Below are positions 1 to 64,000 of a stretch of 64,000 nucleotides of DNA, piece by piece. Source of the DNA: Protoeuglena noctilucae (lineage: Eukaryota); the NCBI GenBank assembly GCA_958009085.1, contig OY253668.1, positions 1,798,001-1,862,000 of the forward strand, given 5' to 3'. Under the pieces are notes generated by a model. That model was not told where the DNA came from. It saw nothing but the letters and a program-made list of their open reading frames with translations, and did no database searches. The stretch's first letter is position 1. Each line of letters opens with the position of its first letter. A program made the translations under genes and the position numbers.

Positions 1-534
1 TGCTGCACCTATCCACCCGCATATCCACTCGCCTTGGGCAGTTCCGCGAGGCTGGCGAGATGATTGGAGTACAGCACCAGCTCCCTCAGCTGTGTGGCGG
101 AAGACAGCGACTGGAAGCTGGCAATCGCGTTCGTGCTGAGATCCAGCGTGCGAAGGTTAGCTGCTCCGGCGAGCTCGGGAGGCACGGCCGACAGCCCGCA
201 GTCGCGCAGTGCCAGGGAAGGGGCGCGGCTCAGGTCCTGGCCTTGCAGGGCGGAGGCGACGGGGGCGGAAATCTCGACACTACGCTCCGATGCTGCGGGG
301 GGGGAGTGGGTGGGATAATTTAAGCGATGAGGTGAAGGGATGTAATGTGGATGAGACTTGTTTGCGAGCGGTGTTTCGGAATGGTGGGAGCTACGAGAGA
401 ACCAGCAGTGCCGGGCCTGTGGGCTGACCTCGCTTGGTGGGAAGGGGCAGCGCGCGTGGCTTCGAGGATTTGGACGACGCCACGGAGATTGCGGAGCTCC
501 GCTCGGCCTCGAGCGCCGCTCCTTTCGTCGACAT
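1..534 (-). CDS. Leucine-rich repeat protein, 5' part (3' end runs off the window)
   Basis: ATG at 534 (MSTKGAALEAERSS...), GT-AG intron ~429-293, then an exon reading ...SLALRDCGLSAVPPELAGAANLRTLDLSTNAIASFQSLSSATQLRELVLYSNHLASLAELPK, which contains LxxLxLxxN LRR motifs. The exon ends at a probable GC donor (AAG|GCGAGT at 32). Confidence 0.7.
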
Positions 535-1251
535 GGCTCTGCCTGGGGCCGGAACGGGCAGTTTGCTTGTGATGCCAGTGCAAGCGAGGAGCGAGCGAAG
601 CGCCCCGCGCCCTCCAGAGGTCGTTCGCGGACGCTGCCATAATCTCAACCTCTGATGTACTCGATAGCGAACCGCAGACGAGGAATCGCGGCTGGCAGGC
701 GCCGCGGAGGGGAACGGGAGGGCTTCCCGGTCGCACGACAGCCCCGGCGCACCTACGCGATCGACTCTGGCCGACTACTCATCCCCCAGCTGTTTGCCGT
801 TGCTCAAAGCGTCGAGGACTGCCCCCAGACAGCGACCGCGAGCCCCGGATGGACCGAGCGGTGCGTGTTGCCTGTGCGGGGCTGAACTCGTTTTTCACAA
901 AGGCTGCGGATGCGACAGTCATAGCCCGCACATCTATGGCAGCTACAAAAGCAGCACGGGCTGCCTGGATTTCGAATGGAGGCCTGGAACGGCTCGGGTA
1001 AGATACCCTGGGCTGCCAGCGGGCTGAGCGCGGCGACCTTCGCGCTCAAGGCCGAGGCGACAGTGCACGTCGATCGAGATATTCTGCTCACGCCGACTGC
1101 ATTGATGGATTGACTGGGCCGCGTGGCTGACGAGCGTTTTGCTCCTGATTTTCCCCGCTTGTGCCCCGCGAGCGCGTCGTTTGCAGCCACAGACTGGCCA
1201 GAAGCAGGTGTATCGTGTCACGGTCCCTTTGGGGGGCCAAAGGAGCCCTCC

Positions 1252-4200
1252 ATGTCCAAGGACTCCAGCGGGGCCCTGGCCACGCTCGGGGGTGACAATG
1301 TGCATTTCAAGCTGAACGACATGGGGGGGTCCGGCGGGGCGCCCAAGCTCCCGCTTTACAAGCTGGACCCCAACAGGTGCCGGCGCACGGCTGAGCGCGT
1401 CCTGCGCGGGCCGCGCCGTGCCGCATTTGTGTTGGCATGCCGCGGCTGCTGCACGCGCCGGCGCGCGCGCGTCCGCCGGGCCAGCGTCGCCGCACGCGTC
1501 TCTTTCGTCGGATTGCAGGCCTGTGTCGACAAACACCACCGCGCCGAGCACCTCGCGGCCGACGACCGTCCCGAACAGCGCGGTCCGCCCCAGCCGCAAG
1601 ACCGTGGCCTCCGCGGGCCCTCGACGCGCCCGGGACCTTGCGGATGCATCGTTTCAGCCGCTTTTGCCAGCGAGCGCAAGCGGCACGCCGCGGCAGGCCT
1701 GGGTGAGCGCTCGCACTCGGCTGCGCCCCGCTCGCCGCGTTGCCGCGACAACATCAAGCCCTCCCCTGCTCCCGCGCGCTCACAGGGCACTACAATGGCT
1801 CCTAATTCGCGTCCGTCGACCACCGTGGACGTCGCGCGGTCCCTGGCGCCGCAGCTGGGTGAGTCTTTCGGCGCCATCTCGCCCCTCACGCCCCTCACCC
1901 GTCACGCCCGCACTGAAAGCATCGTCCCGTGCTGTCCTCGCAGCCAAGCGGCCCCTATCCTCGACGGCGCCGGGCCTCTGGCAGGGCCGGGGCGGGGCTA
2001 AGGGCGGCAAGGGTGGCCGTGCGGGTCGCATTAAGGACGATGACCTGTTCAGCGACGATGATCATGGATTGGGGGCAAAGCCACTGGTCCGAGGCGGCGC
2101 ATCCAGGCAGTCCGATCTGTCGCAGCCGTGGCAGCTGCAGATGCGCATCGGTGAGAGGTGGCCGGGGCGGTGGGGCGAGGCGCGTGTGCGGGCACGGGCA
2201 TGCAGAAGGGACACTTCCTTGTGCAGAGTTCTTCGCATTGAGCAAGAGGACAAAGGGTTCGCAGCTACCCTCCATGCCGTCTCCACCCCACCGCTTCGCA
2301 CAGCACTGCTTCTTCATGCCCCGTCACACCCTCACCTGGTCACTATCCCATTTACAATCCCTTTCAGCATTCCTCTTCGCCCCCCGCAGTCGAGTTAAAA
2401 GAGGAGCTCTCCCGCGTGGGGTACCAGGTGCAGAGCCGCCAGGACCGCCTGGCGCACATGCGTCAGGAGGTGGAGGCCATGGATTTGAAACTGGAGGACG
2501 GCAGTGCGGTGCGGAATCGGTATCTGGAGTTGGAGGAGGAGATGGAGGCGCTGGACAGGAGGGAGAAGAAGGCGGAGCTGCAGCGCAAGATCCTGCAGCA
2601 CATCAAGGTGAGGGACAGTGGGGTGGGAAGATGGGGGTAACTCAGCTGCAGCATTTTTGACGCGAAGGTGGGGGAAGGGATGCGCAAGTATGGCGAAAAA
2701 ATCATTCCATGTGTTTTCACCTCGCTCCCCCCCCCCCCCCCCCCCCTCCTCCTCTCCCAGGACCGCACGTCCGGCAACTTGACGACGATGAAGTCGGCCC
2801 TGTCGCAAGCGCGCGAGGAGCTGCGCGCGGTGGACAAGCACCTGGAGGGAGCGGCACTGGTGCACAACCACGCGGTGCGGACGGCGCGGGAGGCGCAGGC
2901 GATGGCAAAGTTCAGCGTGGATGAGGCGACGAGGGTGGCCGAGTCGTCGCAGGGAGTCATGGGGCAGCGGGAGGTGAGGGGGTGGAGCTGAGGACCAGCC
3001 ACAAACGGCCTGGAGAGGCTTTCCCTATCATGAGGGGGGTGCTGATGGTTGGGTGGGTTGTGGGTGAAGGAGAGGCGGGATGTGTTGGCCAGAGATGTGA
3101 TGGTCAGCCGTCGACAGCCATTCCCAGCAGGCTCTCCTGGCATGCCCTGTCATTGACATGCGTGCTTGCGGTGGCATGCGGCGCCATAGCACAAACGCCC
3201 TCTGCCGCTCATTGCACACCGCGAGGTCCCCCGTTCGATCCCCAGGAGGAGCTCTTCAGCATCCGCGAGGACATCAACAGTTTCCGGGAGATGGAGACGC
3301 AGAAGATGAGGGACCAGAGGAGGAAAGCCAAAGTGGACGCGACACCGACGTCTGGCGGGGCGGGGGCGGCGAGCGGGTGGGGGGCGGGGGGTGCGGCGGG
3401 GACGGAGTTGACGACGGCGGAGGATGCGGCGGAGGAGGCCATGGCGCAGCTGCTCAAGGGCGTGGGGGCGACGAGCTACGAGGTGAGGGGGGCGTAGGGG
3501 GGCGAGTGTCGTGTGGGGGGTTGTGTTAACATTTGGGAGGGTGATGGTGAGTCGGTTTTAGTATAACAGCGAATAAGACGACCCCACAATGGCCACATGG
3601 CACCTTGCGCTGTTGCACAAACGTTACCTGCAACAACGCATGAACATAACAATGCCCTTGCCATCTCTCAGGAGGTGCTTGCGATGTGGGAGGAGGTGCA
3701 CGGCAAGAACCGCGCTGCGATGGAGGACGTGGCCAAGCAGGAGCAGCGAAGGGACCACCTGCAGCACGAGATCGTGGAGGGGAGGCGCGAGCTGGATGCG
3801 GTGAGGGGTGGGGGGTGGGTGGTTGGTTAGATGGGGGTGGGGACAGTTGGGCCGCCTACAATAAAGAATGGTGCTGAGCCAAACACCCCAACCAAAATTC
3901 GCTGTTCCCACTTTGCACCCCTCCCACCACACACACTCCCACCACAACAGCCCTCACCCACCACGCCCTCATCATCTCCTTCTCTTTCCCCCATCTATCA
4001 GACGGCCGAGGAGGCGTCTCGGATGACCGAGGCAGTGAGAGACATGGACGCGAGGGCAACCGAGGTACGCGCCATGACAGCCGAGGTAGAGAAAACCGCC
4101 GAGAGGCACAACCGGGCGCTGCAGGAGCGACTGGCGCGCGTGGCGGCCATCGGGCAGTTCACGCGCGACATCCTGAGGTCCCTGTCTCGATTCCTCGACA

Positions 4201-5449
4201 CCGCGCGGCCCCCGCCCACCCCGGCCCTCCAAGCCACCCCGTCCACCAAAGCCCTGCGGTCTATGTCGTCGTTCGCGGACCGCCCCGCGCCCGCGCGCCT
4301 GCCGTCGCGCATGGCGTCGATGCGCGGGGCCTCGACGAGACCCGGCGCGACGGGCGACGGTGGGGTGGATGGCGCACCGCCGCTGCCGCCCGGCGCCGAT
4401 GGCCCCGGCCTCTCCCGCAGCCCCAGCCGGCCGGCCTCCCGGCGCAACCTGCTCAGCGCGGCGTCGTCGCGCAGGGGCGCGCAGATGGGGGTGGCAGCCA
4501 GGTCAGTTGCTGGTGGCACATGGGTCCCGCCCTGACATGCGAAATTGACACATGAGTGTTCACGCACACGGTTTCGTTTCTTATATCGGTTCTCCTGACC
4601 GCAATACACCTGCCACCGCAACTGCGACTGTAATGTTCCTCATCAAACCAACTAGCGCCTTGCCTTGCTTGCAGCCGTGGTTCGGTGGAGGAGGGGTCCC
4701 TGGCGGTGGCCATGCGCCAAGCGGAGTCGATGATGGACGTGTCGCCCGACGAAGTGGACAGGTGAGACAATGCGTTGTCGGACGAAGCGATGGGAGGCTT
4801 GGATATCGCCAACATGTGTGCCGATCGGCGTGTCCTCCCCAAGCGTGCCGAGGGACAGCGATACCGCTGCAGCGCAGTCCCGTCGTATGACACCTTTGCT
4901 TGATATTCAAATTGCCACTTCTCTGCCCAGGAGCGACGCGGAGGCGGCCCTGCTGTACGACACGCGGCTGTCGATGCTGGCGCTGATGGAGCTCATCGGG
5001 ATGCTCCGCGCCCGGGCCGGCAGCCTCGTCGACACGGCGCAGCTGCCGGCTCCGCCGACGCCGGAGGACGCGGGCGAGCTCGTGGGCTTCGCGCGGAGGC
5101 CCCGCAAGAGCGCCGCCGAGGCGAGTCGAGCAATCGCGCCCGCTCCCGCCCGCTTTGGACCGGCAAGCCACGGCGCTTGCGCGGAGACAGTCATTGTCAT
5201 GTGACCCACATGTCGTGATGTCGCTTTCCGCAGAAGGACCCGCGGCTGTCGCGGCTGGTGGGGTACATCGAGGACGTGGACGTGGTGTCCGATTCCGACG
5301 ACGACGAGGAGTCGCACCGCGTCAACAACCTCGCGCGAAGGAAAGCCTCGCGTCCCAACTCGTCCAGGCGGCGCCCCATGAGCTCCGTGCGACGCACGCC
5401 GCCCGGACGGGTCTTACCCGTTGGGATGTGGTGCCGGAGTGTCGCCTGA
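1252..5449 (+). CDS. Multi-exon coiled-coil protein with low-complexity termini; function unknown (possibly flagellar, docking-complex-like)
   Basis: About 12 exons join in phase: MSKDSSG...; VELKEELSRVGYQVQSRQDRLAHMRQEVEAMDLKLE...; DRTSGNLTTMKSALSQAREELRAVDKHLE...; EVLAMWEEVHGKNRAAMEDVAKQEQRRDHLQHEIVEGRRELDA; stop at 5449. Long E/K/R/Q-rich heptad helices. An in-frame upstream start at 976 (MEAWNGS, intron, DWPE...) is possible. The flagellar role is a guess. Confidence 0.6.
2727..2746 (+). repeat. Poly-C homopolymer (20 nt) at an intron 3' end
   Basis: Run of 20 C just upstream of the acceptor ctcccag (2760). Confidence 0.9.
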
Positions 5450-10802: not shown

Positions 10803-13800
10803 CTACCAATCGCTCGTCTCCTTTTCCCTCTTCTCCCCCACGCGGTCCCTCACCAGGTCCCGCAGGTACAGCCCCTCCTCCTGAGACGTGCTGCGGCCGT
10901 GCATGTGACGGGCTACGTCCACGATCAGCGCGTCCATGCCCACGTCCTGGGGAGTCAAAAAGAGAAAGAGAAACGAGTGATTGATGTGTAATTGAGCTAT
11001 CACACTCATGGTAAGACCATCCATGCCCACAGCACCGCTAATCGCACAGTTATTGAGTCAGCTCGGATTGCTGCGAAACTGCTGTCCCTACCACGCTGCT
11101 AATCGCGGCACACCGTGACATCAATGCACCCTCCCACACAACATCGCTCCCGCCACATCGACCACCACAGCACCCGCCACATCGACTACCACCGCACCGC
11201 TCTCGCAAACCACCCATCCCCTCACCTCTGGTAAGTCCGCCAGAACCTGACACAGGCGCCAGATCTCGGTTCGGTGGGCGTTGAAGAGCGGGCGCAATAG
11301 CACGGCCGCCATGACCCCGAAAAAGGCCCAGGTGACCGCCGTCATCGATGCCTGGATCGCAGTGATGTTGCCCAGCTGATCAGCATCGGTGTTGGCGTAG
11401 GCGTCCCTGCGGGTGAGGTGTGGGACGTGGCACGTTTGGGCATCACACAGCACGATCGGTCAAGGCACAGCACGATACGGAAAGCACAGGGCAGGTGCGA
11501 CTGTGCTGCCAAGACAAGGCCATGACATGAGACGACCCCCCCAAATCAACCACCCGCCGTCGCTCACGTGAGCTGCAGCCCCGTCTGCAGGTGCTTGGTG
11601 CCGACGGTCCCGATTAGCTTGGCCCGCGCGTTGCGGTACGTCAGGCCCTGATCCGGGTCCGTCACCAGTCGCTTGGCCTGCTCGATTAACTGAGTTGTCA
11701 GGATGTACATGCCGCGCCGGGTCGTGGCCGATAGCGGATCCGAGTACATGCTCACGCACCCCGCAGGGTCCAGGCAAACGTCGCCGAACCACAGCGACTT
11801 AAGCTCGGGGGCACTCCACACTGTCCCGCCCTGCACCGCCGACCCCTCGAGATCACTCGCGCCGAATATCACCGCTGACACCGCTTCCTGAGTCAGCCCT
11901 GTCGCCTGCTGCAGCAAAGCACGTTGTTGTGCCACCGCGGCCGCCCCCGCCCCCTCCATCTGCTGAGCCACCATCTCGTTCGCCCACACCAGCATCTGCG
12001 TCACTTGGCTCGTGTACACCGTGAACGCGTGCTGTGGGTCGAGCTGCAGCAACTCCTCCGATGCGAGCGACAGCGTGCGCGCGTACACCGCGATCACCGC
12101 CCCCGCCCACGCCACCACGGCCCCCAGCGCAGCGAACTCCATCGCGTTGCGCGCGAACCCACGTCGCTCTTTGGCGGATCCCGATGCCACCAGCGCCCGC
12201 GCCCGCGTCGCGCTTGCGGCCGGAATGCGCACCCCCATCAAGTGCTGCACCTGCCGACCCTTGCTCTTCTGCCGCTCCCCCGCCGCCGCCCCGCCCTTCC
12301 CTTTCTCCCACCCGCCCTCGCCACCCCCCCACTCCCCATCCTCCTCGCCCCCTTTCCCGCCTTCTTCCGACACCCGCCCATGCCCACCCTCGTCATCCTC
12401 ATCCGCCACCCCCTCCAGCGTCACCTCCCGCTGCCCCAAATCCACCGCGAGCGGCCGCGGCACCGCCACCAGTAACGACAACAGCGTCACGCGTAGCTCC
12501 TTGAAGCCCCGCAGCCCCCGCCACAGCGCTAGTGCCGCCATTGGGGCTGCGACCGCCACCTCTGCCACCAGGAACCCAATCGCCACGGAGCGAATGGGCG
12601 AAACGCTGTCTCTGGCGGCGGCCGCCAGTGCGTCCTCGATCTGGCGCATGCGTGGCAGCAGGACGGGCGCCAGATTGTCGGCGATGAAGTGGAACGAGTA
12701 GCTGCTGGCATCGGGGGGCGGGCTGGCGACGGCGAGGGCCTCTGCGGGGGGTGGGAGGACGGTGGGGTGGGGGGTGGGCTGAGGGAGTGGGGAGTGTGCA
12801 AGCGTAACGATGGGCGAGGCGTGTTGACAGTACATGTCTGGCGTATTGATCTAACACCTTTGACTGACTCACGTGCTGCTCCGGTGAAGCTGGCGACGGC
12901 GTCGTAGTAGCTCATCATCCGCACTTGGGTGGCACCCTGGGTGCCCACGACCTGGATCGGGAGGTCGGGGTCGCGCCACAGCGACTCCACCGTCTCCCGC
13001 CACTTCCCGAGGCTCGCGTCCGCGCCCGCGTGCTGGAGCGCCGTGTGTCGTGCGGACAGCTGCGCCGCTGCGTCGAGCATGCGGGAGGTGGCCGTGTCCG
13101 CAGGCACCCACGGGCACGGGTATCCCGCCGCGGACGAAACGACGATGCGTGAGTAGAGAAGCACGCGCAGCGCGAGTGGCGACTGCGAGCCGGCACTCTC
13201 GAGGTAAGTAAGGGTGCGGTGGTGCTGTTTGACTGCAACGACCGAAGCCGCGAACCCCGCCGTGTGGATGACCGCCAGGGGCATCGCGACGGCCACGAAG
13301 ATGGCGCGGAGACGCGTCAGGGGCTGCAGAAACATCTTGGTCGAGAGCAGCGCGTGGATTTGGTGCATCCGGCCCACGCGCCGCCCGTCCGGACCTGCGA
13401 AGGCGCATCGCAGCGATCCGTGCGCAGTCTAGGCACGTGTGCATGATATTTAAGTAACAAATATTCGCAATCGGGCACGTGTGCATGATATTTATGTAAC
13501 AAATATTCGCAGTATGTGTCCGGAGAAGCGCAGCGAAGCCCCGCTCACCTCGGCTGGAGCCCTCGCTGTTCCTGGCAGCGATGGGGCCCACCTCCTCCGC
13601 GTCCTGTTGTTCGACCGGCAACGTCTGCCTGCCAATCGTGTCTTTCGGCGATGCGCCTTTCTCAGACGCGGCCTTCGCGGATGCCGCCTTGGCAGACCCG
13701 GCCTTGACAGAGCCGGGCCTCCTCACGCCTCCCTCCGGCACCCACGGCGGAGTCCCGGCTTTGGAACCCGACTGACCCAACGTCTGCGGATTGGACGAGC

Positions 13801-16800
13801 TCGCTCCGAGGTTGCCGCCAGCCGCCTGGTCCTGCGCCGTTGCTGCTGTGACCGTCCTGCAGGTGCAAAGAAGGGGGAGCCGCACCTCATCACAACGCTT
13901 CCACTGCGCCAAATTGCTGTGCATTTCTCTATCTGAGCTCTTTGCGCACGTCGCAAACAGATAGGGCCAGCGCTTCGCTCACATCTGCGCGAAGACGTAA
14001 GCTGCTGCACCCAGCCACACTTTGCACATCACGCGCCCGCCCCTCGCCTGGGCTCCTGGCCAGTCCGCGCGCCCGCCCCTCCCTGCGACGCCTCCGCAGC
14101 TGCGCCCGCCCCGTCGGCAGCGCGCGGAACGCCGTTGTCGTCCCCAACTGGCCCCGCACGCAGCATCCACGCTCTCTCGAGCTGCATCAGTGCCGCCTTG
14201 CTCAGAGCCATCTCTTGCCCGAAATCGCTCGCTGCCATCCCCGACGGCGCGATGCCCTTGTCCGCCCACTCGTCCATCCGTAGCCACGAGAAGCTGCGAA
14301 GGGAGGGGCGGGGCAGGGCAAGCGATCGCAAACACTGCAACACTGGGTCGCAACAGGATTGGCATCGCGTCCTATATCGTGTAGTGCTGTGCTGTGCTGT
14401 TTGTGCCCATCGCCCCATCCTCACCCGTGCCCAGCAGATTCCCCGCCCATCCTCGACCCTCCCTCCTCCCTCCCACTCTCCTCCTCCTCCGCACTCCCAC
14501 CCCCGTCATCGCTGCGCACTGGGTCCCTCGACGTGATCGACTCCGCCCCACGCACCCGCTCGCCATCCCCCTCATCACCAAACACATCGATTGGCCCCAA
14601 CCCTCCCGGGCCTCCTGCTGCCGTTGCAGTTGCTCCCTGCCCAACTCGGTCAACTCGGCTCTGTATTTCCTGTATCTCGCCCTCAGCATCGTCCGCATCC
14701 TCGTATCGCCTCGTGGGCTTGTTGGGGGCGTCGTTGCGACTTGCGGCCTTGCCACCAAAGGCCCGGTCCAGTTCGCTGCCGTCCTCAGAGTCCGCAGGGA
14801 GGGGGCTCAGGGGAGGGAAGGCCGTGGCTGCGAGCGGAGGAGGGAATGGCATGGAAGTGTTATTAGTAATATGTGCCATCAACACATGTCACCTACACAT
14901 GTTGTCATCAACACGTGACATGAACACTACCCATGTGCAACTACCTTAACCCAACCCCACCCCCACCCTGTCTCACCCGCCGTGGGCCGGATCGCCACCG
15001 TCATCATCCCCGCTTGGCCCCGCTCCATCACTTGCACGCGTGCCGTCACCGTCGCCCCATCAGGACACGCCAACACCGCCTCTGTCTCGCCGCCCGCCCC
15101 CCCTCCCGACACCTCTTGCAACCCCAGCTCCTGCCCAATCGCTGTAGCCGCGGGCACCCCCAGCACCGCCTCCACGTCACCCCACGCACCCGAGACCATC
15201 CCATCGGGCCTCATCCGCACGACAGCGAAAGCCCTTGTAATTGGCGCCACGCGCAGCGTCAACAGCCCCCCGTTCCTCCCCGCAGGTGTGATGGTGCAAG
15301 GCACCCTCGCGTCTCCCATCCTCGCCATCGCACGCGCATGCCACGCCCCCACATCGTCCCCTTCCCCCTCCCAGCGCGCCATAATGTCCTTGGCAGTCCC
15401 CGCAAGCTCCAACAGCTCCCCTAACTGCTTCAGCCGACCCACACTAGACTCCCCTACACCCCCACCGGGGCCGGTGAGTGATGCCTCAGCAAACGACCCC
15501 TGCATCGGATTCGCTGCCGGCAGAGCTGAGGAGCTCGCTTGGTGCGCGGCAGTGGGCATGGCCGTGAGCTCTCGCTGCGAGGGGCCCATGAGTGCGGCGC
15601 GGGAGGTGGTGGGGTGGGGCGGGGGCAGGCGTGAGGGTCGTTTGGTGAGGGCGTGGGTGAAGAAAGCGGCTTGGAGGCCCGACGCGTGTATGATGCGTCC
15701 AGAAGAGTCGACGTCGATGGTTACGTGGCCCGAGGCGTCCGTGGGGGCGCAGAGGGTAAGGGTAAGCGCCAACTCATTGGCACCTGAGGGGGTGGTATGG
15801 GTGGGGGTTATGGTGGCAGTGGGGGTGGCAGAGAGGGTGGGTGTGAGAGTAAGGCTGTGCCCGTACATCAGCTCAATCGTCCAAGCCAGTCCACCACTCA
15901 CCGTGTGTGATGGCAGCGCCCTTGTCGATCTCCACATTGACATAGACGTGCCGCCCTCCCAGGGTCCGCATGCGCAAGGGGCCCGACAGCAGCATGCAAG
16001 GGGCGGGGGGCTGCGGGAACAAAGCGACGAGAGCGGCGTCGATCGTCGTTAGCAATCAGCCATCGTGCAATGGAGTAAGCGATACAGTAAGCAAATGGAG
16101 TTCATGACAGAGTAGGCAATACAGTCAGCAACAGAGTTGGCGATGAGAGTCGGCGACCCATCTCTAAGCCCTCACCCGGTCTCCCTGCCCCGCCCCCGCC
16201 TCCCCCAGCTCTCGGTGCAAGTCCTGCACATCGCCGGGCATCCACTCCCACAGCTGCCGCCCCACCATTCCCCCGTGCCCGGCATGCAGCATCGCCTCCG
16301 CACCCCCATCCGCAGACACCACCCTGCCCGACGCCCGCTCCACCGTCACCGACCCCTTCGTGTGCTGCACAGCCATCACAGTCAAAAGCACCAGAGGCGC
16401 TCGGTCTGTTCCCGCCGGGACTGCCTGGGCTTGCGCCAGCACCCCACCGCCCACCGCCACCCCCGTCCCGACCCTCAGCAGCCCCTCTGCGCTCTCTGCG
16501 CCGCTGCCGGACAGAGACCGGAGCAACTCGTGCGCCCCGGGGAGCACCGCCTCTACGGGCGCTCCCATCACAGACCCCGGTGAACGGCCGAGCATCGACG
16601 CTAGTGGCGCATCCACCGCCACGACCATGTGACCCTCGGGGCTCAGCCAGGCACGCGCCAGTGTGCCTGGGAATATGGACTGGTCCCAGGCACGGGCGGG
16701 GAGCGAGGGGTTGAGCACTCCCACGAACGTCACCCGGCCGCCCTGCATTGCATCGCAGGGGGGGGGGGTGGTGCATTGGGGTTGAGAGACTGGCAGGGAT

Positions 16801-39947: not shown

Positions 39948-40137
39948 TTTCGCCCCCGCCGCGCGTAGTCCGTCGGGATATCGCTTACGAACCTGCCAGT
40001 CCACGCACGCACTTGAAGCGTAACGTAGAGACGCCTTCTCGCCCGCCGTGCCACATCTGTGCCCAAAAACGCTAACAAGAAACAGCGTCAGCCTGTTTTC
40101 GGCGGAAGCAGCCGCGCGAATCCTTCGCTGCAGGGCC

Positions 40138-41251: not shown

Positions 41252-41326
41252 CAGCCGAGTGACACGTACAGGCATTCACTCACTCCGCACGCCTTCAACA
41301 GCCATGTTTCCCTTGCAAACCCTCGC

Positions 41327-43737: not shown

Positions 43738-43919
43738 GGGGCGGACCCCGGGGCTGCACGGCCACGGCTGCAGATCGCAAGCCGGGGTATGTCTCCCGGC
43801 ACCGCGTCGCTCTTCTGACCCCGGCACCGAGTGGCCTAAGAGCTAACAGCAACTCATGGACCTTCACTGGCGCCAGGAAACAACGCAGGGAAAAGACCCT
43901 TGGCAATGCAATCGGTGCC

Positions 43920-45619: not shown

Positions 45620-45921
45620 TGCCGAGATCGTCCATGCGGCCCTCCAGGCGACGCATCAAGTTGCCCGGGCACGGGAGCAAGGCATTGCTGCGCTCCGGGA
45701 AGCGCGAGAGCCAACTAGGGCGACGTGCAGTCAAGGCTCGTACGATCTCTTCACACACATGACGCACCCGCGTCCTATCTCTGCACCATCGCTGCAAGAC
45801 ACAGACCCCGGCAGTGCCAGCGGCACAACCACAGCCCATGATACGCAAACACAGGAAGCGCTCCCATGCCACACGCAACGACCAAGAGCGCCTGGGTTGC
45901 AAAGCAGACTCCCAGCTTAGC

Positions 45922-47307: not shown

Positions 47308-47728
47308 GATGGGAGGACGTGGATCCAGGATGCCGCGTCCGCTTCGGCCGGGGCTTCGGGCAGAACGTTCACAGCGATGCGCGCCTGTGGATGTCGATGA
47401 GTATGACCGGCGCCGCTTCTGTCGGGCAGGTGAGGGCCACACACCTGCTCGCTGGCACCATGGCGCTGGCGGATTGTTGCGGACACCACAAGCACCGTGA
47501 CAGCTCGCTGCATGTTCCCAGTCCTTCTCTCACGCCGGCAGTCCAGTGCCCGGCCCGCACTCGTTTCAGCTTGAAGTGGTGGTGGCCCCAACTCGAATTT
47601 TTCGCGAGGCAGCCGCGGAATGGACTAGCTGGTGGAATTGGTTGGTACTGCTGCTTGCTGCACACTGGTGGAATGGCCGTGTAAGCGACTCGAGACGCCG
47701 CGTGGGCTGCGGTGCTTGTTAGCTCGCG

Positions 47729-50299
47729 ATGGGGCTGGCTCCTGCGCGGGGGAGAGTTTCCCTCTCGCACGCAAAGGTGAGAGACGTCGACGTTGTAGAC
47801 GCATGCCGGGGCCGACCGACGGAGCCGTGGCTGCCCGGTGACGCGGGGCTGTCGTCTCTTGGCCGCGCGATGACGCCAGCCTCGCTGCGACACGCTCCTC
47901 CGCCTGTTTCGCAGGGCACGCTTCGGAGGATATTTCGGCGATGGGACAACCCCCATGAGAGGGCGCTGGCCGTCCGCGTGGCTCTCGTGCTGCTCATGTG
48001 CGAGGCCGTGCTGTGCGGGCTCATCATTTGGAAAGTCCCGTACACGGAGGCGAGGTTTTTAGGCCGGCGCGCCCATAACTAGCTGTGCGGACTGCTCTCT
48101 CCTACCCGGCCGCTGCAAACAGGTCACGTCTGGCCCCCTCCACGCCTGCAGATAGACTGGACGTCGTACATGCAGCAGGTGGGGCAGGTGGAGGGCGGGG
48201 AGCGGGACTACTCCCGCATACGGGGAGACACCGGGCCGCTCGTCTACGGCGCCGGCCACGTGCTCTTCTTCTGGCTCCTCAAGCTACTCACGGGCGGCCG
48301 TGTGTTGCTGGGGCAGCTGTGCTTTGCGCTGGTGTACCTGGCCACCCAGGCCATGATGCTGGGAATCTACGTGTACAGGCGAGACTGCGAGAATGCGAGA
48401 GTGCGGGACTGCGCTCGGTTTGCTGCCAGCGAGAGCCTGGCGCTGCCCACGTCGCCCGAGCAACAATCCCAGCCCGTGCCGCCGCCACAGTGAGGTGGTC
48501 CCTCCCTGGGCGCTGCCACTGCTGTGCCTGTCGAAGCGCGCCCACTCTATCTACCTCCTGCGCATGTTCAACGACGGCCTTACCACGCTGATCTCCAACA
48601 TCGGAATCGCGCTCCTTTTGACACGGCGGTTCGTCGCAGCCGCCGCCGTCTTTTCCTTGGTGACAGGCGCATGGTTGTTCCTGCTGTTGTTCTATTACTC
48701 TTGCGGGTGCCGAGTCGCTGCTGCTGCGCTCTCATGCGCACGCCTCGCGATGCCCCCATCGCTGCTGCTCCCTGGACCCTCCGCCCTCGCATACCCTCGC
48801 AGGCCACGAGCGTCAAGATGAACGTGCTGTTGCTGGCGCCGCCGGTCCTGGTGCTTTTCCTCCAAGGCGCCACTCTGGCGGAGTTCGCCAAGGGTGCCAT
48901 GGCTGGTCTCGCGGTACAGGCAGTGCTAGCAGCCCCGTTCCTGGCAACGAACCCCGGCGCCTACTTCGCGGGCGCGTTCGACATCGGCCGCGTGTTCCTG
49001 CATCAATGGAGCGTCAACTTCCAGGTGTGACGGGGCCGTCGATGCCCGCATTGCAGCCCACAGTGCACACGCACGCCGAATGGTATGCGGGGCGGGTCCT
49101 TTACTACCGGTTCCCGCAGACCCCTAAGCCGCGCATCTTTGCTTCACGCTGTCCCTGCCTCCGTCTCCCCAGTTCGTCAGCGAGGCGGTCTTCACGTCCC
49201 GCACCTTCGCGGTGGCCCTCTTAGCCCTGCACGCCTTCCTCCTCGCCCTGATGGTCTGGCGATGGATGACCCCAAAGGACCTCCCGTGCTCGGTTGCCCT
49301 GACCGCCTTTGTCCGTGCATCGCGGCCACCCACACACCCAGGGCTGGGGGCAGGGGCAAGCGCGGTCTTGCGTGTCCCCTCTGCGAGGGCGAGGGAGATC
49401 GCTGCCGCCGCGCAGGAGGAGAGCTTGGGGGCAAAGGAGGGCGGGTGGGGTTTGGGCCCGCTGGAGGGGCGCGGTGCGTACGGCGGCGTGACGTGGGCGT
49501 TTGAAAGGGGAAGCAGGACGTCCACTGAGACCCGGGGAGGCGGGAGGGAAGGTGAGAATTGATGCTGGCAGGGTCGCTGCAGGTGTTTGCAGGTGTATGC
49601 TGCGCACCTGGGGTATGCCTGGCATGTAGCTGTATTGCGTGGCCATGTCGAAGACGCGACCTGCGCCAACCGCAGAGACCGGGTCGCTCACGCCGCCGCA
49701 CCTGCCCGGCAGCCCCGCCCCATCCAAGGACCGGGACAGGGACCGCCGCTCGGCGCGAACCTCGCTGGCACGCCTCAGCACGTCGCACGTGCTATACGTA
49801 CTCCTCACCGGTCACCTCGCCGGCGTCATCTCCGCACGGACCCTCCACTACCAATTCTACGCCTGGTACTTTCAGCACATCCCCGCGCTCCTATGGTTCA
49901 CGGGTGCGGGGCGCGCTGGCGAGGGTGGGGCGTTGATGCGTTGGTGCTCTCTTGGGGAGGTGACTCCTGCGTGTGGCCCGTCCCCCGCAGACCTGCCCGT
50001 CTTCTCGAGACTCGCTTTGTGGGCGGCCATCGAGTTCTGCTGGAACGTCTACCCCCCATCCCTCCACACCTCCCTCGGACTCCTCGCTTTGCACGTGGTG
50101 CGTCTCCGTCACCACCGCACAACTGCACAGCTGCACGCAGTGCAGCTGCTCCCCTCCGCGCTGAGTGAAACCAGCGAGTTCTTCAACCCGCCCCTGCCAT
50201 GACCACCCGCAGACGCTTCTTGGATCGCTGTGGCTGGCGCCGCAACCGCCCGCCGTGGAGGAGGGCCCACACCGCAGCCGGGCCCGCAGCCTCTTTTAG
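47729..50299 (+). CDS. ALG3: ALG3 Dol-P-Man:Man5GlcNAc2-PP-Dol alpha-1,3-mannosyltransferase
   Basis: IIWKVPYTE|IDWTSYMQQV, GERDYSRIRGDTGPLVY, LSKRAHSIYLLRMFND, SVKMNVLLLAP, AFDIGRVFLHQWSVNF, ARTLHYQFYAWYF, IEFCWNVYP; stop TAG at 50299. Confidence 0.93.
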
Positions 50300-50418
50300 G
50301 CTGAGGACCGCTGAGGCTTACAGGAAACGCACACCGCTCCGCCGATTCGAAAGGGTATCTAGATGGCGGTGCGGCTGAATTTATGGGCAGATGCGCGATG
50401 TACGGATATGCCTGCAGC

Positions 50419-51653
50419 CTAGGACCCGTTCTGGCCCTGTGAGAACAGCACCGAGTACCCCTCCCCGTTGGGGTTGGGCTGAAGCTTGAAGTTGTCCAGA
50501 GACAGCCCAAACCTCCCCAAGATGGTGTTGCCCAAATCCTTCAGCTTTTCCATCATCTCCGCCTTGAGCTTTTCCTGCGACCGGGGACCCCTCCATGTGC
50601 GGAAGCAAAGCCACTAGCAAACAGAAGAGGAGCCTGGCAGCAGCGGCGAGTCCCGGCGGCCGTCCAGCGCTCCAAAATGGGCCCGCAGCGGTTGGGCCGC
50701 GCAGAAACTCACCTCCTGGGCGCTGACGCGTGGCTCGAGGCGGATGATGGCGGCTCTAGCGTCCCGATTCCCCACGTCCAGGTCGGCCACGCGCTTCCAA
50801 TCCTCCAGCGCGCGCGATTCCTCCCCCAAATGCTCGTAGCAAGACGCTCTGCGGGGGCGCGAGCCGGCATCCGTCGACCCGCGGAGCGGCTTGACAGCAC
50901 GCTGACATCAACACCCGCCCCTCGAGGCCCGCCCACCTGCGCGCCAGCGCTCGCACGTAGCCCGAATCCACCGCCAATGCATAGGAGCAGTCCTGGATGG
51001 CGCCCTGGTGATCCCCCTTCGCCATGAGGGCCGCCGCGCGATTCCCGAAATACACAGAGCGTTCTCGCCGGGTCGGCGGGCACCGCGACACGGCCCGCGA
51101 GTACTTGGAAATCGCGTCCTCCATGTTGCCATCCCTGCGCCGGCCGAAAGCGTGCTCGGTCGACGGTGTCGGTTATGCCAGAACGGCAATTCGTACTCCA
51201 GCAAGGCGCACACATACCTGTAGCTCGTGTTGCCCTCCGCCTTGAGCCCCTCTGCCACGCGCACCAGCTCGTCCTCCTCCTCCCGGGTCAGCTCCGGCTC
51301 CGGATCCCCAAACCTCCACGCGTCCGGAAAGACGGCCTCACCATCCTCGTTCAAGAACGAGCTCAGGGGGAGCCGTGGGCCCGGCTGCTCGGGTAGCACA
51401 GCAGGTGCGTCCTCCTCCCCATCCCCCGGCGCAGCCCTCGGCCGGAACTCCTGGGCCACGTGGTCCCACTCCTGAACGCACGGGCACGCGAGCGCATGGC
51501 GAGGCGGCTTGAAATGGCGCAAATTTGCACGTCCGTGCACATCGTGCCTCCCCATGACACAGCTTAGCGCCTTTCAAGAAGGCGGTGACCGGCACGAGTC
51601 ATCCCCGCCACTAGTGCATCGACGGATCGATGCCTCGGCCGCACCTGCTCCAT
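50419..51653 (-). CDS. Tetratricopeptide repeat protein TTC1-like
   Basis: [12 protein letters not shown]..., [53 protein letters not shown], and the TTC1-type C-terminus [39 protein letters not shown]; stop at 50419. Confidence 0.88.
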
Positions 51654-51928
51654 GACGAGCGCTCGGCAGGACGCGAGCTGTCAATGCTATCGATTCTGCG
51701 GCCGCGTCGAGAGACCCGGAGCGCGACGACGCGAAGACCGAGGTCAGGACGCCGGTGTGTGGCAGATGGGCGCTGTTGCTAGCCTTTGGGTTCGCACGAT
51801 GCGTCAGAACCCGACTCATAACATTGAACCAGAGTCTCCGCGACTGCCTCCACCACCAGGCAATACCAGGCAGCTCTTAGACATGCAATCAAGCTCATGC
51901 ATCGAGGCCGCGCTACCCCGGGCAACCG

Positions 51929-53516
51929 TCACACCCGCAGGATCTGCGTCTTGGAGTCGTAGCAGATGGCGATCCACTCGGGCTGCAGGGTGCTCCACTG
52001 CAGCTGGGTGATGGCGCCTTCCGCGGCGTACGCCAGGAAGGGGTCCATGCCGCCCTCAGCGGGCGCGGAGCCAGTCCCCGAGGGGCGCAAGTCCCAAATG
52101 AGGGCTGCGGGAGCGATACCAAGAGATGTCAGCCCACGCTGACCCGGCAAAGCTTTCCGCGACCACAGCCTCTTCAGCTACGCACCTTGCTTGTCGTCCC
52201 CGGCCGTGCACATGTGGTAGCACGAGTGCGGAGCCCACGCCAGCGCGTTGACCGCCGCGGCATGCCGACTCAGCTCCGCAACTGGCAGCGTCGGGAAGCG
52301 GATGTCCAGCACGATCGCACGAGGGCTGTCGAAGCCCAGTGCGGCGATGTAGCGGGGGTCCTGCGGGAAGGGCGGGGCGCTGCTTGGTATGGCACACGAC
52401 AACAGGCCCGATAACGCTGGGCACTGGCTGCGTGGTAAAGCCACGCGCCTGCTTGTTCCAGGCGAGGTGCAGGAGGGGGCTGTCGGGCTCTGGGCTCTCG
52501 TAAATGATGGTCGAGTGCTCCTTGTCCCGAAGGTCAAACACCCTCACGCTGCAGTCGGCACTGCGATCGAGGCGAAGGGGCAAGTCGTTTGATATATCGG
52601 TTTTTTGACTTGGCAAAACGCAACGTTCGACACTCGCTCCCGTCGCGCCGCGCCTCGCCCCGCACCTGACGCTGGCGAACACGCCGGCGCCGCCCCAGGC
52701 CATGTCGTAGACCTCCCGGTCGTGCGCAATGAGCTGCGTGTCGACGACGCCGCGCTCCACGTCCCACACGGTGCAGGTGGTGTCGATCGAGCAGGTTCCG
52801 ACCCGCTTGACGTCCACGTCGTTCCAATCAAAGCTCGTGAGGGGCGCACAGAACTCGGTGGTCCCAGAGTTGTCCAGCACCCGGTCCAGCTCCACGTGAT
52901 CGTCCGACACCTTCCAAACGCGCAAAAAGTCCCCCGCTGCGGGCAAAAAAAGCTTACTTAAACAGCTGCTGGGGCTGCGAGCTTCGTAAGACGGCCGCGT
53001 GCGCTCGGCCGCGACTCTCACCCGTGGCGACGAGGTCGGGTCGCGTGCCCTCCTTGTCGGGAATGAACATGACCTTGGAGGGCGGGTACGGGTGGCTGAA
53101 GCACAGGTTGGGGTTGGCCACGAGCATCTCGGTCTCCGAGTCGAGCTGGATGATCTGCGCAGGGGGCCAACAAAAGTCGCTCGTTCGCGTCCTCAACACA
53201 CCGCAGCACAAAACGCCTGCCTCGCTCGACTCCCTCTCACCTCCACCTTGTTGCAGTAGTCCTCCACAAAACTCGCCACCGCCAATCGAAAGGGCTTGTC
53301 GTGGCGGGACGACCAATGCATCGCGTACACGGGGAGCGCGCTCTGATGCGTGTACACCTCGCAGCGTGCCCCCTGCCCGTCCTTCTCCAGCCTGTCATGC
53401 ACGGGCCCCTCCTTCACGGGGCCATCCTTGACCGCCGCAGTGCCTTCCAAAGCCATAGGACCCCCGCCCGCCGGATCCTCGGACGGTCCCGCGGCCGCGA
53501 TGCGCTGATCAACCAT
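51929..53516 (-). CDS. WD40 protein DCAF7/WDR68/AN11/LWD family
   Basis: [109 protein letters not shown]. Confidence 0.96.
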
Positions 53517-54175
53517 CGCCGCTTACTCCCATACCCGGCGCGGCGCGCGGGTGCGCTGTCTGCGCGGGTCAGAGGACGAGAGCGGGTCGAGAGCAGAGAT
53601 GAGAGCAGTGCGAGAGCAGAGAGCAGTGCGGCGCACCCCGGGGCTGGCCGAGGGGAGGATGCCCACGGCTACCCCACGGCCAGCGGAGCGAAAATAACAT
53701 CGGCATTCCCGTCGCCGTCCGTCCAGCGGAGAGGACGCCCTTGCTGCCGCGGGAGGATGAACGAGGGCGCGCACCTGCTCTCCGCGTCCCGACAGCCGGA
53801 TCGTTCCCTCCCGCACTTGCCCCCGTTCTACTTCCGTCACGCCAGCCACTCACGCGCACACGGTGGGACCAGAGGGACCAAGAAAAGCGAATCTCAGAGC
53901 TTGGACCTCGGGGGGAGGGCAGCGATCGGTTCCAGCGGTCAGATGATTTGGTCATACAAAAGTGGGAGTGCAGCGGGAACACATCAAGCCCCTGGCGAGT
54001 CGCCGTGGCGCTGACACGCCAGAGGCTGCTCTTTCCGCGAGGAGAGCCCGTGCTCCGCGTGCGTGGGCGGCAATTCAACTAGTATCGGCAAACTCCTCCA
54101 GGCGCGGGACGCGGACGCGGGGAACTGTTCTGAAATTGGCGGGAAGCCCCCGGCCTTCGTCCCAGGGCTCGCCGG

Positions 54176-57031: not shown

Positions 57032-59459
57032 TCATCCGAACGCTACAACCCCGTGATGAATCCACCACCGGGCTGCGACGCGCGCTGCTCCCGGCAGACA
57101 CGCGGCCACCAGGACGAGGCCCATCGCAAGCAGGGCCCCCAGCCCAGCGTCCGTCGCATTCCACGTGAGCTTCCCGCCCACCCCTGGGCTGCTGCTGTCG
57201 TCCCTGCCAGACACAGAGGCAGGCATATCGGCATCGGCCTGATTGGTACCACCCATCCCCGCCGGGGCGCCCTGGGTGCCGCCCCGCTGTGTCGATGAGG
57301 GCTTGTCCGCATCGCATGGCCACGCCACCGCAGTTCCTGGCTCCCCTCCCACTCCCGAACCCGCATCGTCGGGTCCCGGGAACACCACCTCGATCACGGT
57401 GCCCTCCACGTGCCATCGTGCCGCCGCCGTCACGCGCACCCGCACCACCCCGCCCAGCAGCCTCGGCCCGGGTGGCACGAGGACCTGCACGTACCCCCGG
57501 GTGTGCCCCACGAGTCTCCCGCCCTTGGGCGCCACGTCCACGACCCATACGTCTTGCTCGGTGCCCACGAGGTGCGAGTACTTCTGCAAGACATAGCGGC
57601 ACTTGCTGGGCTCATCGCCAATGACTGCCAGTCCATGCAATGAGAGCGCACAGGTCACTCGCCTCGGTCCATGCGTCGACGAGCTCCGCCACCGCTCGGG
57701 AACGCGCCTTCTTGTCCTTCGCGGGGACGACCGGGCGCATGCGGGCGGCGGGCGTGCCGGGACGGGGGTAGAACTGCGACACGTGGGTGTGGCCGAAGCG
57801 GTAGTGTCGCAGCAGGGCTAACGTGGCCTCGTGGTCCGCCTCCGTCTCGCCAGGGAAGCCACAGATGATGTCCGTGGCGATTTCGAGACCCGGCACCTCC
57901 GCCAGCAGTGTGTCGCACACGCGGCGGAACTCGGACGCCGTGTACTCGCGGTTCATGCGGCGCAGGACCTCGTCCGATCCCGACTGGACGGGCACGTGGA
58001 GGTAGGCGAAGACGCGGGGGTCGCGAAGGCATGCCGCGATGGCGGGGAGGTGCTCCAGGATGAAGGGCGGGTTGGTCATCCCGACGCGGAGCATCACGCG
58101 GCCGTCCAAAGGCAGCTCACGGATCAGGAGGCGAAGCAGCGACGGCAGGTTCGTCCCGATGTCACGCCTGCACCCGGGGCCGGGCGTTCGTCTGGTCAGC
58201 TCCTCAAATGTGCTGTGGACCTCATGCTTGCGGACCGCCCCCGCCCCGCTCACCCGTACGCGCCCGTGTCCTCGCTGCTGAGCCATATCTCCCGCACCTC
58301 CCCGTCCGCCACGGCCACCCGGACCCTATCCACCAGCGCACTGGGGTCGTAGCTCCCCAGCTCCCCCCGCGCGTGCTTTGTCTTGCAGTAGGTGCAGCTG
58401 CCCAGACACCTGAGAGCGACAGACGCGGCAACGGTGGGACTTCCACCGCATTGCATCGACAGTGTAGGTTCCACTGTAAAGCGTCGACAGCACGCTGCAC
58501 GATGTGCGGACGTGAGCGCGCACCCTCACCCAGTCGACAGCGGCACGATTTCCACGAATCGGTTGCGGCGGACTTTGGGCAGGTCCAGCCGCGGCAGCGC
58601 CTTCTTCTGCAGGAGACGAGGGTCGAGGATGAGAGTCTCTCTGAGTTGACAAGACAGGCGAGGATGGCTGTGTCCGGGTGGATTGAGAAGGACCGTCGCA
58701 CCGCCAGCATCGCTGCGCCCCCGCGGTCGTCCGCTCGCCTTCAGCATGTGCACGACGTTCCCCTTGATCGTCTCCTCGACGGCCTCGACGACGCGATCAA
58801 TCTGCGACACGCCCAGCACTGACACGCCCTCAAGCTCACGCAGCCGACGGTCGCCCTGGGGCACGCAGCCGGCCACCACGATGGGCTTGGATGCCTCGTG
58901 GGCCTTGCTGCGAGCGGACGCGGAACGAATGGGAGATGCGGAGGAAGGTACGGACGCGCAGAGCGGTGGTAGTGCGCGAGAGATCAACGCTCACCGGAGG
59001 AGCGTAGACATGGCGTCCTGGCTGGGGCCCTTGACGGTGCACGTGTTGACGACCCAGGCGTCAGCATCGGCAGCCTCGGCGTCGGCAAGGATCACTCGGT
59101 AGCCATAGGCCGCAAGTTGCCCAGCCATGTACTCCGAGTCGCTCTGGTTGTGGGCGCAGCCGAAGGTCTTGACCCACACGGACTGAGTTCCCGGTACGTG
59201 CGCATGGTCCGCCTTCTCAACGTCCCGCAGAACGCGGCGGCGCACTCGGACGGCGGCGGGGAGCTCCCCTGCACGGACCCAAGCAGCAGCCATCGAGAGA
59301 CCCGTCAATCCGATGCGCCATTGCCCAAGCGAACAACGGCTTTGGCTTGCAAGCAGACTACGGTGCAGTCGGCAGCATTCCGCGGCGCTCACTCGTCACC
59401 CGGGCTCCGTCCGGCCCGGTCCCGGCCAAGTCCTCGATGTCTACATCCACCGCCGCCAT
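57032..59459 (-). CDS. CDKAL1: CDKAL1/e-MtaB threonylcarbamoyladenosine tRNA methylthiotransferase (radical SAM)
   Basis: [63 protein letters not shown] (CxxxCxxC), [51 protein letters not shown] domain, C-terminal hydrophobic anchor. Confidence 0.96.
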
Positions 59460-62204: not shown

Positions 62205-62339
62205 CAGACACCGTGCTCAGTCTTTGTCTTTGCTGCGCGGCACGATTCAACGTCTCGCTAACGATGCTTGCCGCACCGGCGAGCTACCAGGCAGACACAC
62301 GCGTGGGCAGGCGGCCTCTCAAAGGCTGCGACATCGCGT

Positions 62340-63933
62340 CTACTCCTCGTGGAGGGCGACCTTGAGGGCGTGGGTGACCTTGGTCAGGACGGCGATGATC
62401 CGCCCCTTGACCGTCTGGTCCTTGCCCACCTTGATCAGGCCCAGCAGCGCCCAGACGCCCGTGAGGGACTTGGACACGGCCACCACGAGGGCGGTCGTGG
62501 ACAGCGTCTTGAACTGCTCCGACATGCAGAAGTGGTCGGTGCTGACCTGCTTGGAGGTGTCCTTGGACATGGGGGCGCCATTGAAGGCGTGGATGAGCAG
62601 CTCGAGGTCGGCGCCGCCCTTGGTGTCGTTGACGACGATCTGCTCGAGCGTGCGGGCCACGCTGCGGATCGACGAGCGGGTCTGCAGGGGCGGATATGGA
62701 CGGGGGGGTCAGCTTCCGCACCAGTGGGGTGCGCACCTGCATCCTGTTCCTGCCACAGCCCGCTGGTCACTCGCCTGGTACCACGCGTGCAGGGACATGA
62801 CGGCCGAGAGTAGGTCGGCGAAGTTCTCGGGGTTCTGGATGGTGGCGAGCGTGAAGGCGATGACCTCGGCCAGGGCGCCGAAGAGCATCAGGGACGCCGA
62901 CGAGAGGGCGAGCGACATGGACATGACGAGCTCGGTGATGATGTCGGTCTGGCCGGGCAGGAACTCGAACTTCTTGCGGGCCTCCATCTCCTTGGGGTCG
63001 AAGGTCGGGTCGGCCTTCTCGCCGCAGCAGTCGCGGAACTCGGCCAGCGCCGTGGCGGCCTCGACGGCCTGCGCCACCTTCTGCTCCTGGGACACGCGGC
63101 CGTGGTCGCGGGCACTCTTCTCGTTCTTGGCGCGGATGGTCTTGGACGTCTTGGGGAGGGCGGGCGTGATGAGCTGGTCGACCCACTTGAGGGGGTTGAA
63201 GGCCCACTCGGACGTCAGGGCCTCGTTCGTCTCGGGGAAGAGGTCTGCGCGGGCCGGGCCGGGTGGCAGGGGTGACTCGGCGAGGGATATCGGGGCACGC
63301 CGCAGTACCAACGCTGCCGTGCCGCGCGCCCCACCACTCACCCAGCAGGCGGTCGAGGAGGGCCATGGAGGCGACGATGGCGACGGCCGAGGCGACGTGC
63401 TCGGGGTGCTTGGTCTCCTTGGTCACGCAGACGAGGCGGATGAGGGCGTTCAGGAGCCACGCGGCGCGGAGGTGGAGGTAGAGCTCGTCGAGGCGGGTGA
63501 GGACGCTGAGGACCTTGGCGAAGTCGCAGTCGTGCCACAGGGAGGTCTCGATCTTGCTGAGGTCCATCTTCTTGGCGGAGGAGAGCTTCTCGCGGGGGTT
63601 CTCGTCCTTGAAGTGCTCCTTACCGTCCTTGGTCTTGCCAAAGCGGTCCGCGGAGCTCGAGCAGATGTAGGCGAGGCCGAGGAAGTTGATGGCGTCGGTC
63701 ACGGCGAGGATGATCTCGTCGTAGTTGATCTTGGGGCCGCTGCCGGGGTTGTTGAGGTGCTCGAGGTACGAGATGACGCCCGAGAAGAGCACCGCCGCCA
63801 CCGCGATGTAGTACATCACGGAGCACTGGGACAGCGCGTCCCTGACCGCGTAGATGTGCGCGATCTCATTCTTGGTGAAGAGGATGTAGCGCTGGGAGTT
63901 GAGCTCCGACTTGAAGATGGTCTTGAAGTCTTG
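62340..63933 (-). CDS. Uncharacterised membrane protein with two related hydrophobic domains (5' end beyond the window)
   Basis: Three exons in phase: [22 protein letters not shown]...[14 protein letters not shown]...[19 protein letters not shown]...ALHEE*. Third codon positions are almost all G/C, a strong coding signal. Confidence 0.8.
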
Positions 63934-64000
63934 CTGCGGGGGCAAGGGCAGTTCGTCGGAAGCGGCGCATTTCGAGATCGACCGCCGCCAACCGGCGTCA

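Follow-up and report, generated by a model that had tools for sequence, protein, structure and literature searches.

Frequent GC-AG introns and a donor context rule in predicted genes of the green alga Protoeuglena noctilucae

The stretch of DNA of the small marine alga Protoeuglena noctilucae considered here (contig OY253668.1, positions 1,798,001-1,862,000; 64,000 nt with a GC content of 64%, hereafter the window) carries genes for SAMHD1-like, RBBP5/Swd1, ALG3, DCAF7/WDR68 and CDKAL1 proteins, an LRR gene, a coiled-coil gene, two PAS-domain (TmcB-like) genes, a putative bystin-like gene and a gene of an unnamed family, and introns that open with GC instead of GT are found or predicted in all of them. 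Our analyses showed that such GC-AG introns make up 16-18% of the predicted introns, about one in six, on all contigs of the genome that were sampled.

A preliminary description of the window, made from its letters, had listed 17 GC donors and a doubtful one at 48379, all with exonic AG before an intronic GCG that was nearly always GCGAG. All 18 coordinates proved right: exonic AG is followed by GCG at each of them, with GCGAG at 17 and GCGCG at 52448. A gene model that trains itself on the genome recovered all 17 of these sites that lie in the interior of the window, even when retrained solely on DNA from outside it, and added three GC introns, at 5121(+), 25397(+) and 60343(+). The site at 32 was also called but was not counted because it lies at the window edge; an acceptor 152 nt on preserves the LRR period. 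The earlier total of about 140 introns stands (140-142), and its estimate that one in ten was GC-AG was slightly low, the 20 GC introns amounting to 14%, a share typical of the genome sample. The donors and introns are as follows.

1-32, minus strand: GC donor at 32, LRR gene, running off the window start; predicted from frame and model
5121-5233, plus strand: GC-AG intron, coiled-coil gene at 1252-5449; predicted by the model, absent from the earlier list
13857-14047, minus strand: GC-AG intron, first PAS-domain (TmcB-like) gene; frame and model
17370-17613, minus strand: GC-AG intron, first PAS-domain gene; frame and model, the following exon starting a PAS fold
19570-19760, minus strand: GC-AG intron, first PAS-domain gene; frame and model
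22599-22767, plus strand: GC-AG intron, second TmcB/PAS gene; frame and model
25397-25512, plus strand: GC-AG intron, second TmcB/PAS gene; model, absent from the earlier list
25833-26049, plus strand: GC-AG intron, second TmcB/PAS gene; frame and model, the following exon matching TPR_TmcB 26-51
26800-26938, plus strand: GC-AG intron, second TmcB/PAS gene; frame and model, flanking exons matching TPR_TmcB and PAS
33853-34076, minus strand: GC-AG intron, SAMHD1-like gene; best-ranked join against P0001 and three distant homologs
34597-34834, minus strand: GC-AG intron, SAMHD1-like gene; best-ranked join against homologs
35020-35257, minus strand: GC-AG intron, SAMHD1-like gene; best-ranked join against homologs
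35932-36053, minus strand: GC-AG intron, SAMHD1-like gene; best-ranked join against homologs
42018-42129, minus strand: GC-AG intron, RBBP5/Swd1 gene; end of an RNA piece, human RBBP5 alignment, model
48050-48151, plus strand: GC-AG intron, ALG3 gene; Pfam PF05208 positions 22|23 across the junction
48379-48490, plus strand: GC-AG intron, ALG3 gene; RNA contig joint in three of three RNA runs, none in X10
52361-52448, minus strand: GC-AG intron (GCGCG donor), DCAF7/WDR68 gene; intron-free P0295 equals the spliced model
57584-57662, minus strand: GC-AG intron, CDKAL1 gene; spliced in P0252, retained in P0009
58607-58738, minus strand: GC-AG intron, CDKAL1 gene; spliced in P0009 and P0252
60343-60440, plus strand: candidate GC-AG intron lacking exonic AG, putative bystin-like gene; model, the weakest call
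62682-62774, minus strand: GC-AG intron, gene of unnamed family; frame and model

Are these donors used? Metatranscriptome contigs of three marine RNA runs were mapped to positions 33700-53699 of the window, with a deep genomic-type run (X10) as contrast and with RNA runs X5 and X6, which had small shares, left out of the set, and gave 49 joints in total, with details for the 15 listed (14 GT-AG and one GC-AG). In the GC-AG case 48374 is joined to 48487 in RNA contigs of all three runs, with four letters of slack, and of the five cuts possible at this joint the sole splice-like one is GC..AG at 48379-48490; X10 has no joint there. The donor at 48379, previously called ambiguous, is thus real. 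Three other junctions are fixed by database proteins from intron-free contigs: P0252 (599 aa, 2,080-bp contig) is identical at 599/599 residues to the spliced CDKAL1 model across 58738 and 57662, and P0295 (380 aa, 1,466-bp contig) at 380/380 to the spliced DCAF7 model across 52448. From their length and absence of introns we infer that both contigs are transcripts. A further protein, P0009, splices 58738 yet reads through the 57662 intron. When 10 open reading frames were queried for spliced cluster mates, five were present in the protein collection and one yielded a spliced protein.

At five further sites the evidence is homology. In ALG3, Pfam PF05208 runs from position 22 to 23 across 48050, and in the SAMHD1-like gene the closest homolog, P0001, ranks the proposed join first at four of four sites, as do distant homologs. 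In the RBBP5/Swd1 gene an RNA contig piece terminates at 42129 and the human RBBP5 alignment reaches the last codon of the exon there; the final RBBP5 exon, when examined, gave no informative structure match. The preliminary description had held that conserved protein motifs pin the junctions of ALG3, DCAF7, SAMHD1 and RBBP5, and in the first three genes the joins are borne out. Four junctions are therefore fixed at the transcript level (48379, 52448, 57662 and 58738) and five by homology (48050 and the four in SAMHD1), and eight further sites (32, 14047, 17613, 19760, 22599, 25833, 26800 and 62774) are predicted from reading frame and model. Motif counts were dropped as evidence: the window holds 29 copies of AGGCGAG against 13.6 expected from shuffles, but the control word AGGGGAG is enriched as well (20 versus 10.8), so that such counts by themselves prove little.

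The genome-wide share was estimated with the same self-trained model, in which GC, GA and GG donors were given equal low starting priors and GA and GG served as controls. Its seed included the 14 GT joints from RNA and excluded the GC joint. The first run, on the window and 40 stretches of 10 kb, converged on 779 GT, 158 GC, 5 GA and 2 GG donors in 944 introns; outside the window 138 of 802 introns were GC, and the share did not differ significantly from stretch to stretch (chi-square p 0.98). Models cross-trained on halves of the sample called GC in 128/792 and 142/794 introns of held-out DNA, and fixing the GC prior at 1% still left 131 in 938. Applied without retraining to 400 kb of fresh DNA, the model called 126 of 732; once retrained on the full 864 kb, which samples 23 of 27 contigs and 3% of the genome, it called 275 of 1,660 predicted introns, or 16.6% (95% interval 14.9-18.4), with 7 GA and 6 GG. 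In both the first and the extended runs one ALG3 seed exon was one base out of frame; a re-run with the seed corrected and a single shared donor matrix gave the same picture (300 of 1,644). GA and GG controls numbered at most 13 in every converged run. The model recovers 14 of the 15 listed RNA joints, and its CDKAL1 and DCAF7 products, which span 11 introns including three GC, are identical to the intron-free database proteins. By these model estimates the window is typical and not a chance outlier in a genome with 1-2% of GC-AG introns, and the relaxation of +2 specificity first suggested from it extends genome-wide in the model sample. A GC donor was called in 76 of 80 stretches and 69 of 149 complete predicted genes contain a GC intron, which upholds the warning that GT-only predictors would misannotate many genes: such annotation would damage the gene sets of this lineage, with nearly half of the genes misread.

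The choice between T and C at +2 depends strongly on the rest of the donor. In donors of the form AG|GYRAG, C occupies +2 in 232 of 496 cases (~47%), compared with 11 of 148 in AG|GYGCG, none of 73 in AG|GYGGG and 18 of 713 in donors lacking exonic AG, the range for this last class being 2.5-6%. With the shared donor matrix the contrast recurs (227/487 in AG|GYRAG, 45/723 without exonic AG), so the context rule is not created by a class-specific matrix. The neutral share of C, taken from intron bodies, is 0.49-0.57, and relative to it the log-odds of C at +2 are -0.1 to -0.4 in AG|GYRAG and -2.5 to -3.9 elsewhere; as far as equilibrium frequencies can tell, the +2 base in AG|GYRAG would be near-neutral. 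Outside +1/+2, GC donors have 5.1 matches to U1 and GT donors 4.3 (p 1e-22); GC donors carry A at -2 (0.90), G at -1 (0.98), A at +4 (0.87) and G at +5 (0.96), with mostly G at +3, and their commonest words are GCGAG and GCAAG. In the predicted introns, then, compensation is required on both sides of the junction, exonic AG as well as +4A and +5G. The earlier proposal of strong exonic compensation was correct for the exon and incomplete, since the intronic positions are needed too. No difference between GC and GT introns was seen in length, body GC or acceptor score. The acceptor is unusually strict: 926 of 944 introns have C at -3, and 734 end in CGCAG or TGCAG. No branch-point word was clearly enriched, a CTRAY-like motif occurring in 13-14% of both intron classes.

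We read these as ordinary introns of the major spliceosome in which +2 can be T or C almost freely once the other donor positions are optimal, and we give this reading a probability of about 0.72. A C at +2 loses one base pair with U1, while -2/-1 pair with U1 and with loop 1 of U5, and +4/+5 with U1 and the U6 ACAGAGA box. Full pairing at -2/-1 and +4/+5 would make up for the lost pair, and short introns with a very strict acceptor would help to define the intron. If C costs almost nothing in this context, T and C would exchange by mutation and drift to the C-rich equilibrium of the genome. Some 30% of donors lie in the context and roughly half of those carry C, which covers 232 of the 275 GC introns. 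The donors follow the U2-type consensus and, with no branch motif enriched, do not fit the minor (U12-type) consensus quoted in PMC3033335, and a single U1 with a canonical 5' end, a single U5 with a canonical loop 1 and a single U6 with a canonical ACAGAGA box were found, which together point to the major, U2-type class.

The same donors occur in relatives. The plastid Ycf3 protein is 98% identical to that of Marsupiomonas (164/167) versus 151/166 for Ostreobium, a single marker by which the alga would be a pedinophyte (Pedinophyceae); in a quick CDKAL1 tree, which contained no named pedinophyte, it formed an isolated chlorophyte branch. Pedinophytes have been placed as the basal lineage of the core green algae (PMC12574857). 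A set of 80 metagenome Prp8 loci was chosen for one unbroken exon, which biases it towards intron-poor genes; the best matches in it were L050 and L051. The model, with its GC prior at 1%, called GC at 3/7 donors in L050 and 4/7 in L051, compared with 0/33 in 11 other loci selected mostly for high GC, one of them a eukaryote locus at 70% GC. At two shared intron positions the donor has switched (L134:5406 versus L050:9604, and L049:3260 versus L051:9840), being GT in this genome and GC in the relative both times; at the first, in a kinase gene, position +4 is C where the donor is GT and A where it is GC, in keeping with the context rule. The comparison of orthologous donors that the preliminary description called for thus found two GC-using metagenomic relatives, and the predictions indicate that the GC-AG excess is real, genome-wide and common to a clade.

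What keeps the cost of C so low? This is the step of the account of which we are least sure. The most likely cause, in our view somewhat better than an even bet, is a clade-wide loosening of +2 checking at the protein level, for which changes in Prp8 and U1-C are candidates. Four Prp8 changes (human numbering I1566L, F1577M, Q1599N and Q1728K) occur here and in both GC-using relatives. Among 37 distinct Prp8 proteins from 79 metagenome loci (one truncated locus of the 80 was excluded), L1566 was present in three and M1577, N1599 and K1728 in two each, and the four residues were missing from 34-35 of the other 35. Within L048:8306-9046, Prp8 residues L1566, M1577, N1599, N1689 and K1728 are rare among the sampled eukaryotes and mostly common to both relatives. 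SNRNP27 and U1-C are present in the genome. The U1-C gene (L175:1501-1872, on G000:C1 about 12 kb before the window) has an apparent GC donor of its own at 1872, and its zinc finger departs from human at positions 11-12, positions 18-19 lying beyond the alignments obtained; two GC introns are predicted in the Prp8 gene, one of them lying precisely at human 1505|1506. A bolder version, which we hold to be doubtful, is that the spliceosome of the pedinophyte clade was altered in Prp8 or U1-C with its snRNAs unaltered, that this made U at +2 optional in AG|GYRAG, and that it also eased massive intron gain without introners (transposon-derived introns). If true, the four Prp8 residues would be natural suppressor alleles of +2 checking.

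Several observations weigh against this account of a nearly free +2 position. Just one of the 15 listed RNA joints (49 in all) is GC-AG, and the genome-wide share is a model estimate, not a count of reads. The difference between P0252 and P0009 at 57662 indicates an intron that is sometimes retained and hints at a cost of the GC donor. Near-neutrality has equilibrium frequencies as its basis. There are just two donor switches, and the model that called introns in the relatives had learned from the present genome; the Prp8 changes, too, may be mere clade signatures. Few intron positions are common to this genome and relatives at 90-95% protein identity, a pattern that the conversion of old introns leaves unexplained. 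Against distant references a skipping join outscored the proposed one at three of seven sites; those joins were rejected as an artefact of fixed-length scoring, and P0252 and P0295 settle all three.

Could the composition of the genome suffice? If the spliceosome were unchanged, GC-biased mutation or gene conversion alone would fill strong donors with C, a possibility that shares the drift step with the loosened-checking account and differs in cause only. It fits the 64% GC of the window, the canonical snRNAs and the GC-richness of known algae with many GC-AG introns (PMC3033335). However, GC donor use in this genome has no link with intron body GC (0.633 for GC donors, 0.629 for GT donors, p 0.59) and at most a weak one with gene GC3 (p 0.08), the 70%-GC eukaryote locus has no GC among 12 predicted donors, and Micromonas RCC299 is reported at 64% GC with only 2.7% GC-AG (PMC3033335). 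We therefore regard composition alone as unlikely. The GC pressure invoked earlier as a driver would at most supply the T to C change.

That GC donors were brought by an old burst of introner insertions, since diverged past recognition, seems improbable, although intron turnover does invite the idea. Prp8 has at least 13 introns here (L048-L049, G000:C14), whereas the 90%-identical L050 lacks introns and L051 has a single one at a different place; a 95%-identical kinase (L134 versus L050) shares only about three intron positions, with private introns on each side, and with so few loci gain and loss are indistinguishable. A Prp8 intron seemingly shared with L051 was a model error, tblastn locating it elsewhere, and the introns that L089, L106 and L107 have in the matching Prp8 codon are one base off and were not counted as shared. 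Pelagophytes, Micromonas and dinoflagellates are known to carry introners that bring GC donors (10.1101/2021.10.25.465678, PMC11282704, PMC7789003). An all-against-all comparison of the 1,660 introns, from 3% of the genome, nevertheless gave three similar pairs, none of them GC, and the sampled introns showed no excess of terminal inverted repeats, junction repeats or target-site duplications. The +2 base is independent of the start of the next exon (37:39 versus 97:78, p 0.34), GC and GT introns are alike in length and composition, and donors switch at shared positions, so that a recent introner origin in particular is unlikely from these sequences. The similar pairs (L156:846-953; L159:1455 and L035:3744; L025:48 and 4327), all with GT donors, include one of 730 nt at 96% identity whose members lie on different contigs; the others are local duplications.

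That GC donors are selected as weak sites through which intron retention or alternative splicing is regulated is quite improbable. The 57662 intron, retained in P0009 and spliced in P0252, would suit it, as would the enrichment of GC donors reported for alternatively spliced genes of animals and Arabidopsis, but that sole case of retention may be an unspliced precursor, the frequency of GC donors is near the neutral expectation, and their even distribution takes in core genes, Prp8 and U1-C among them.

Recognition by a variant U1 or U6 snRNA, which the preliminary description had put forward, or by the minor spliceosome is highly improbable. The pairing sequences of U1, U5 and U6 are canonical, so the variant-snRNA explanation fails for the copies found, and a DNA search of the genome gave no second U1. 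The U1 does score just below the Rfam cut-off (65.9 versus 69.5 bits), and since the searches score the best candidates only, a strongly divergent copy could escape. No U12 snRNA match was obtained, in a search for which no positive control was registered. Finally, that the GC donors are prediction artefacts, with neighboring GT sites used, is refuted for the nine transcript- or homology-fixed junctions and has a negligible chance elsewhere, given that the GA and GG controls collapse and a GT-only model costs about 1,200 log-likelihood units, even if most of the 275 GC calls carry no transcript check.

Why GC donors are 10-50 times commoner in a few algae than in other eukaryotes has been asked since at least 2011. 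The baseline of about 1% assumed earlier holds for most eukaryotes (plants average 1.2%, PMC6310983; mammals are below 1%, PMC2490688) and omits algae reported at 8-55%: Aureococcus anophagefferens (39.6%), Micromonas pusilla (22.2%) and Chlorella sp. (7.7%) in Iwata and Gotoh (2011, PMC3033335), and Emiliania huxleyi (~55%, PMC7779022). Iwata and Gotoh described such algae as GC-rich with canonical U1, termed the origin of the donors an enigma and suggested proteins or RNA modifications. Our alga belongs with these species, sharing a GC-AG share far above 1%, a GC-rich genome and a canonical U1 5' end, but it is of another green class, and whereas Micromonas and Aureococcus carry introner families, none was found in its sampled introns. 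It resembles the pelagophytes, Micromonas and dinoflagellates in its many GC donors with AG acceptors and an apparently rapid turnover of intron positions, and differs from them in that neither repeat families nor terminal inverted repeats or target-site duplications were found in its 1,660 sampled introns. Like U2-type GC-AG introns of plants and mammals, its introns have a near-consensus remaining donor and switch between GT and GC among species, and for both neutral fixation in strong contexts has been proposed (for mammals by Churbanov et al., PMC2490688); here, however, they are ~14 times commoner, +2 is almost free in AG|GYRAG and +3 is mostly G. The verdict is that they probably work like ordinary U2-type GC-AG introns at about 14 times the usual rate. 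The contribution of this genome is threefold: introners were not detected in the sample, the context rule is sharp and goes with a near-neutral +2, for which the consulted parts of PMC3033335 and PMC7779022 hold no counterpart, and there are candidate protein changes. Our literature search met no report of a GC-AG excess in pedinophytes, although per-species survey tables, preprint supplements or a journal version could hold a figure; the main text of the pedinophyte genome preprint does not contain "splice", the consulted part of a 2025 pedinophyte paper has no relevant mention, and PMC10639083 and PMC9886943 contributed nothing further. The compact genome offers a clean case, with canonical snRNAs, no confounding introner families and a quantitative rule, and GT/GC switches in relatives together with a short list of candidate proteins make the cause of algal GC donors testable.

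Some minor observations remain. The U1 and U5 genes lie 24 kb apart on one contig (G000:C20:523585-523744 and 547394-547513). Close homologs of SAMHD1 and DCAF7 (P0001 and P0129) are unbroken open reading frames on contigs of 6-12 kb. The gene at 62340-64000 (minus strand) is strongly biased in codon use, and neither of the exons examined, which flank the intron at 62682-62774, matched Pfam. The two PAS-domain (TmcB-like) genes, at 10803-21615 (minus strand; this model may fuse more than one gene) and 22433-33181 (plus strand), are very large and lie in divergent orientation, with 22-25 predicted introns each.

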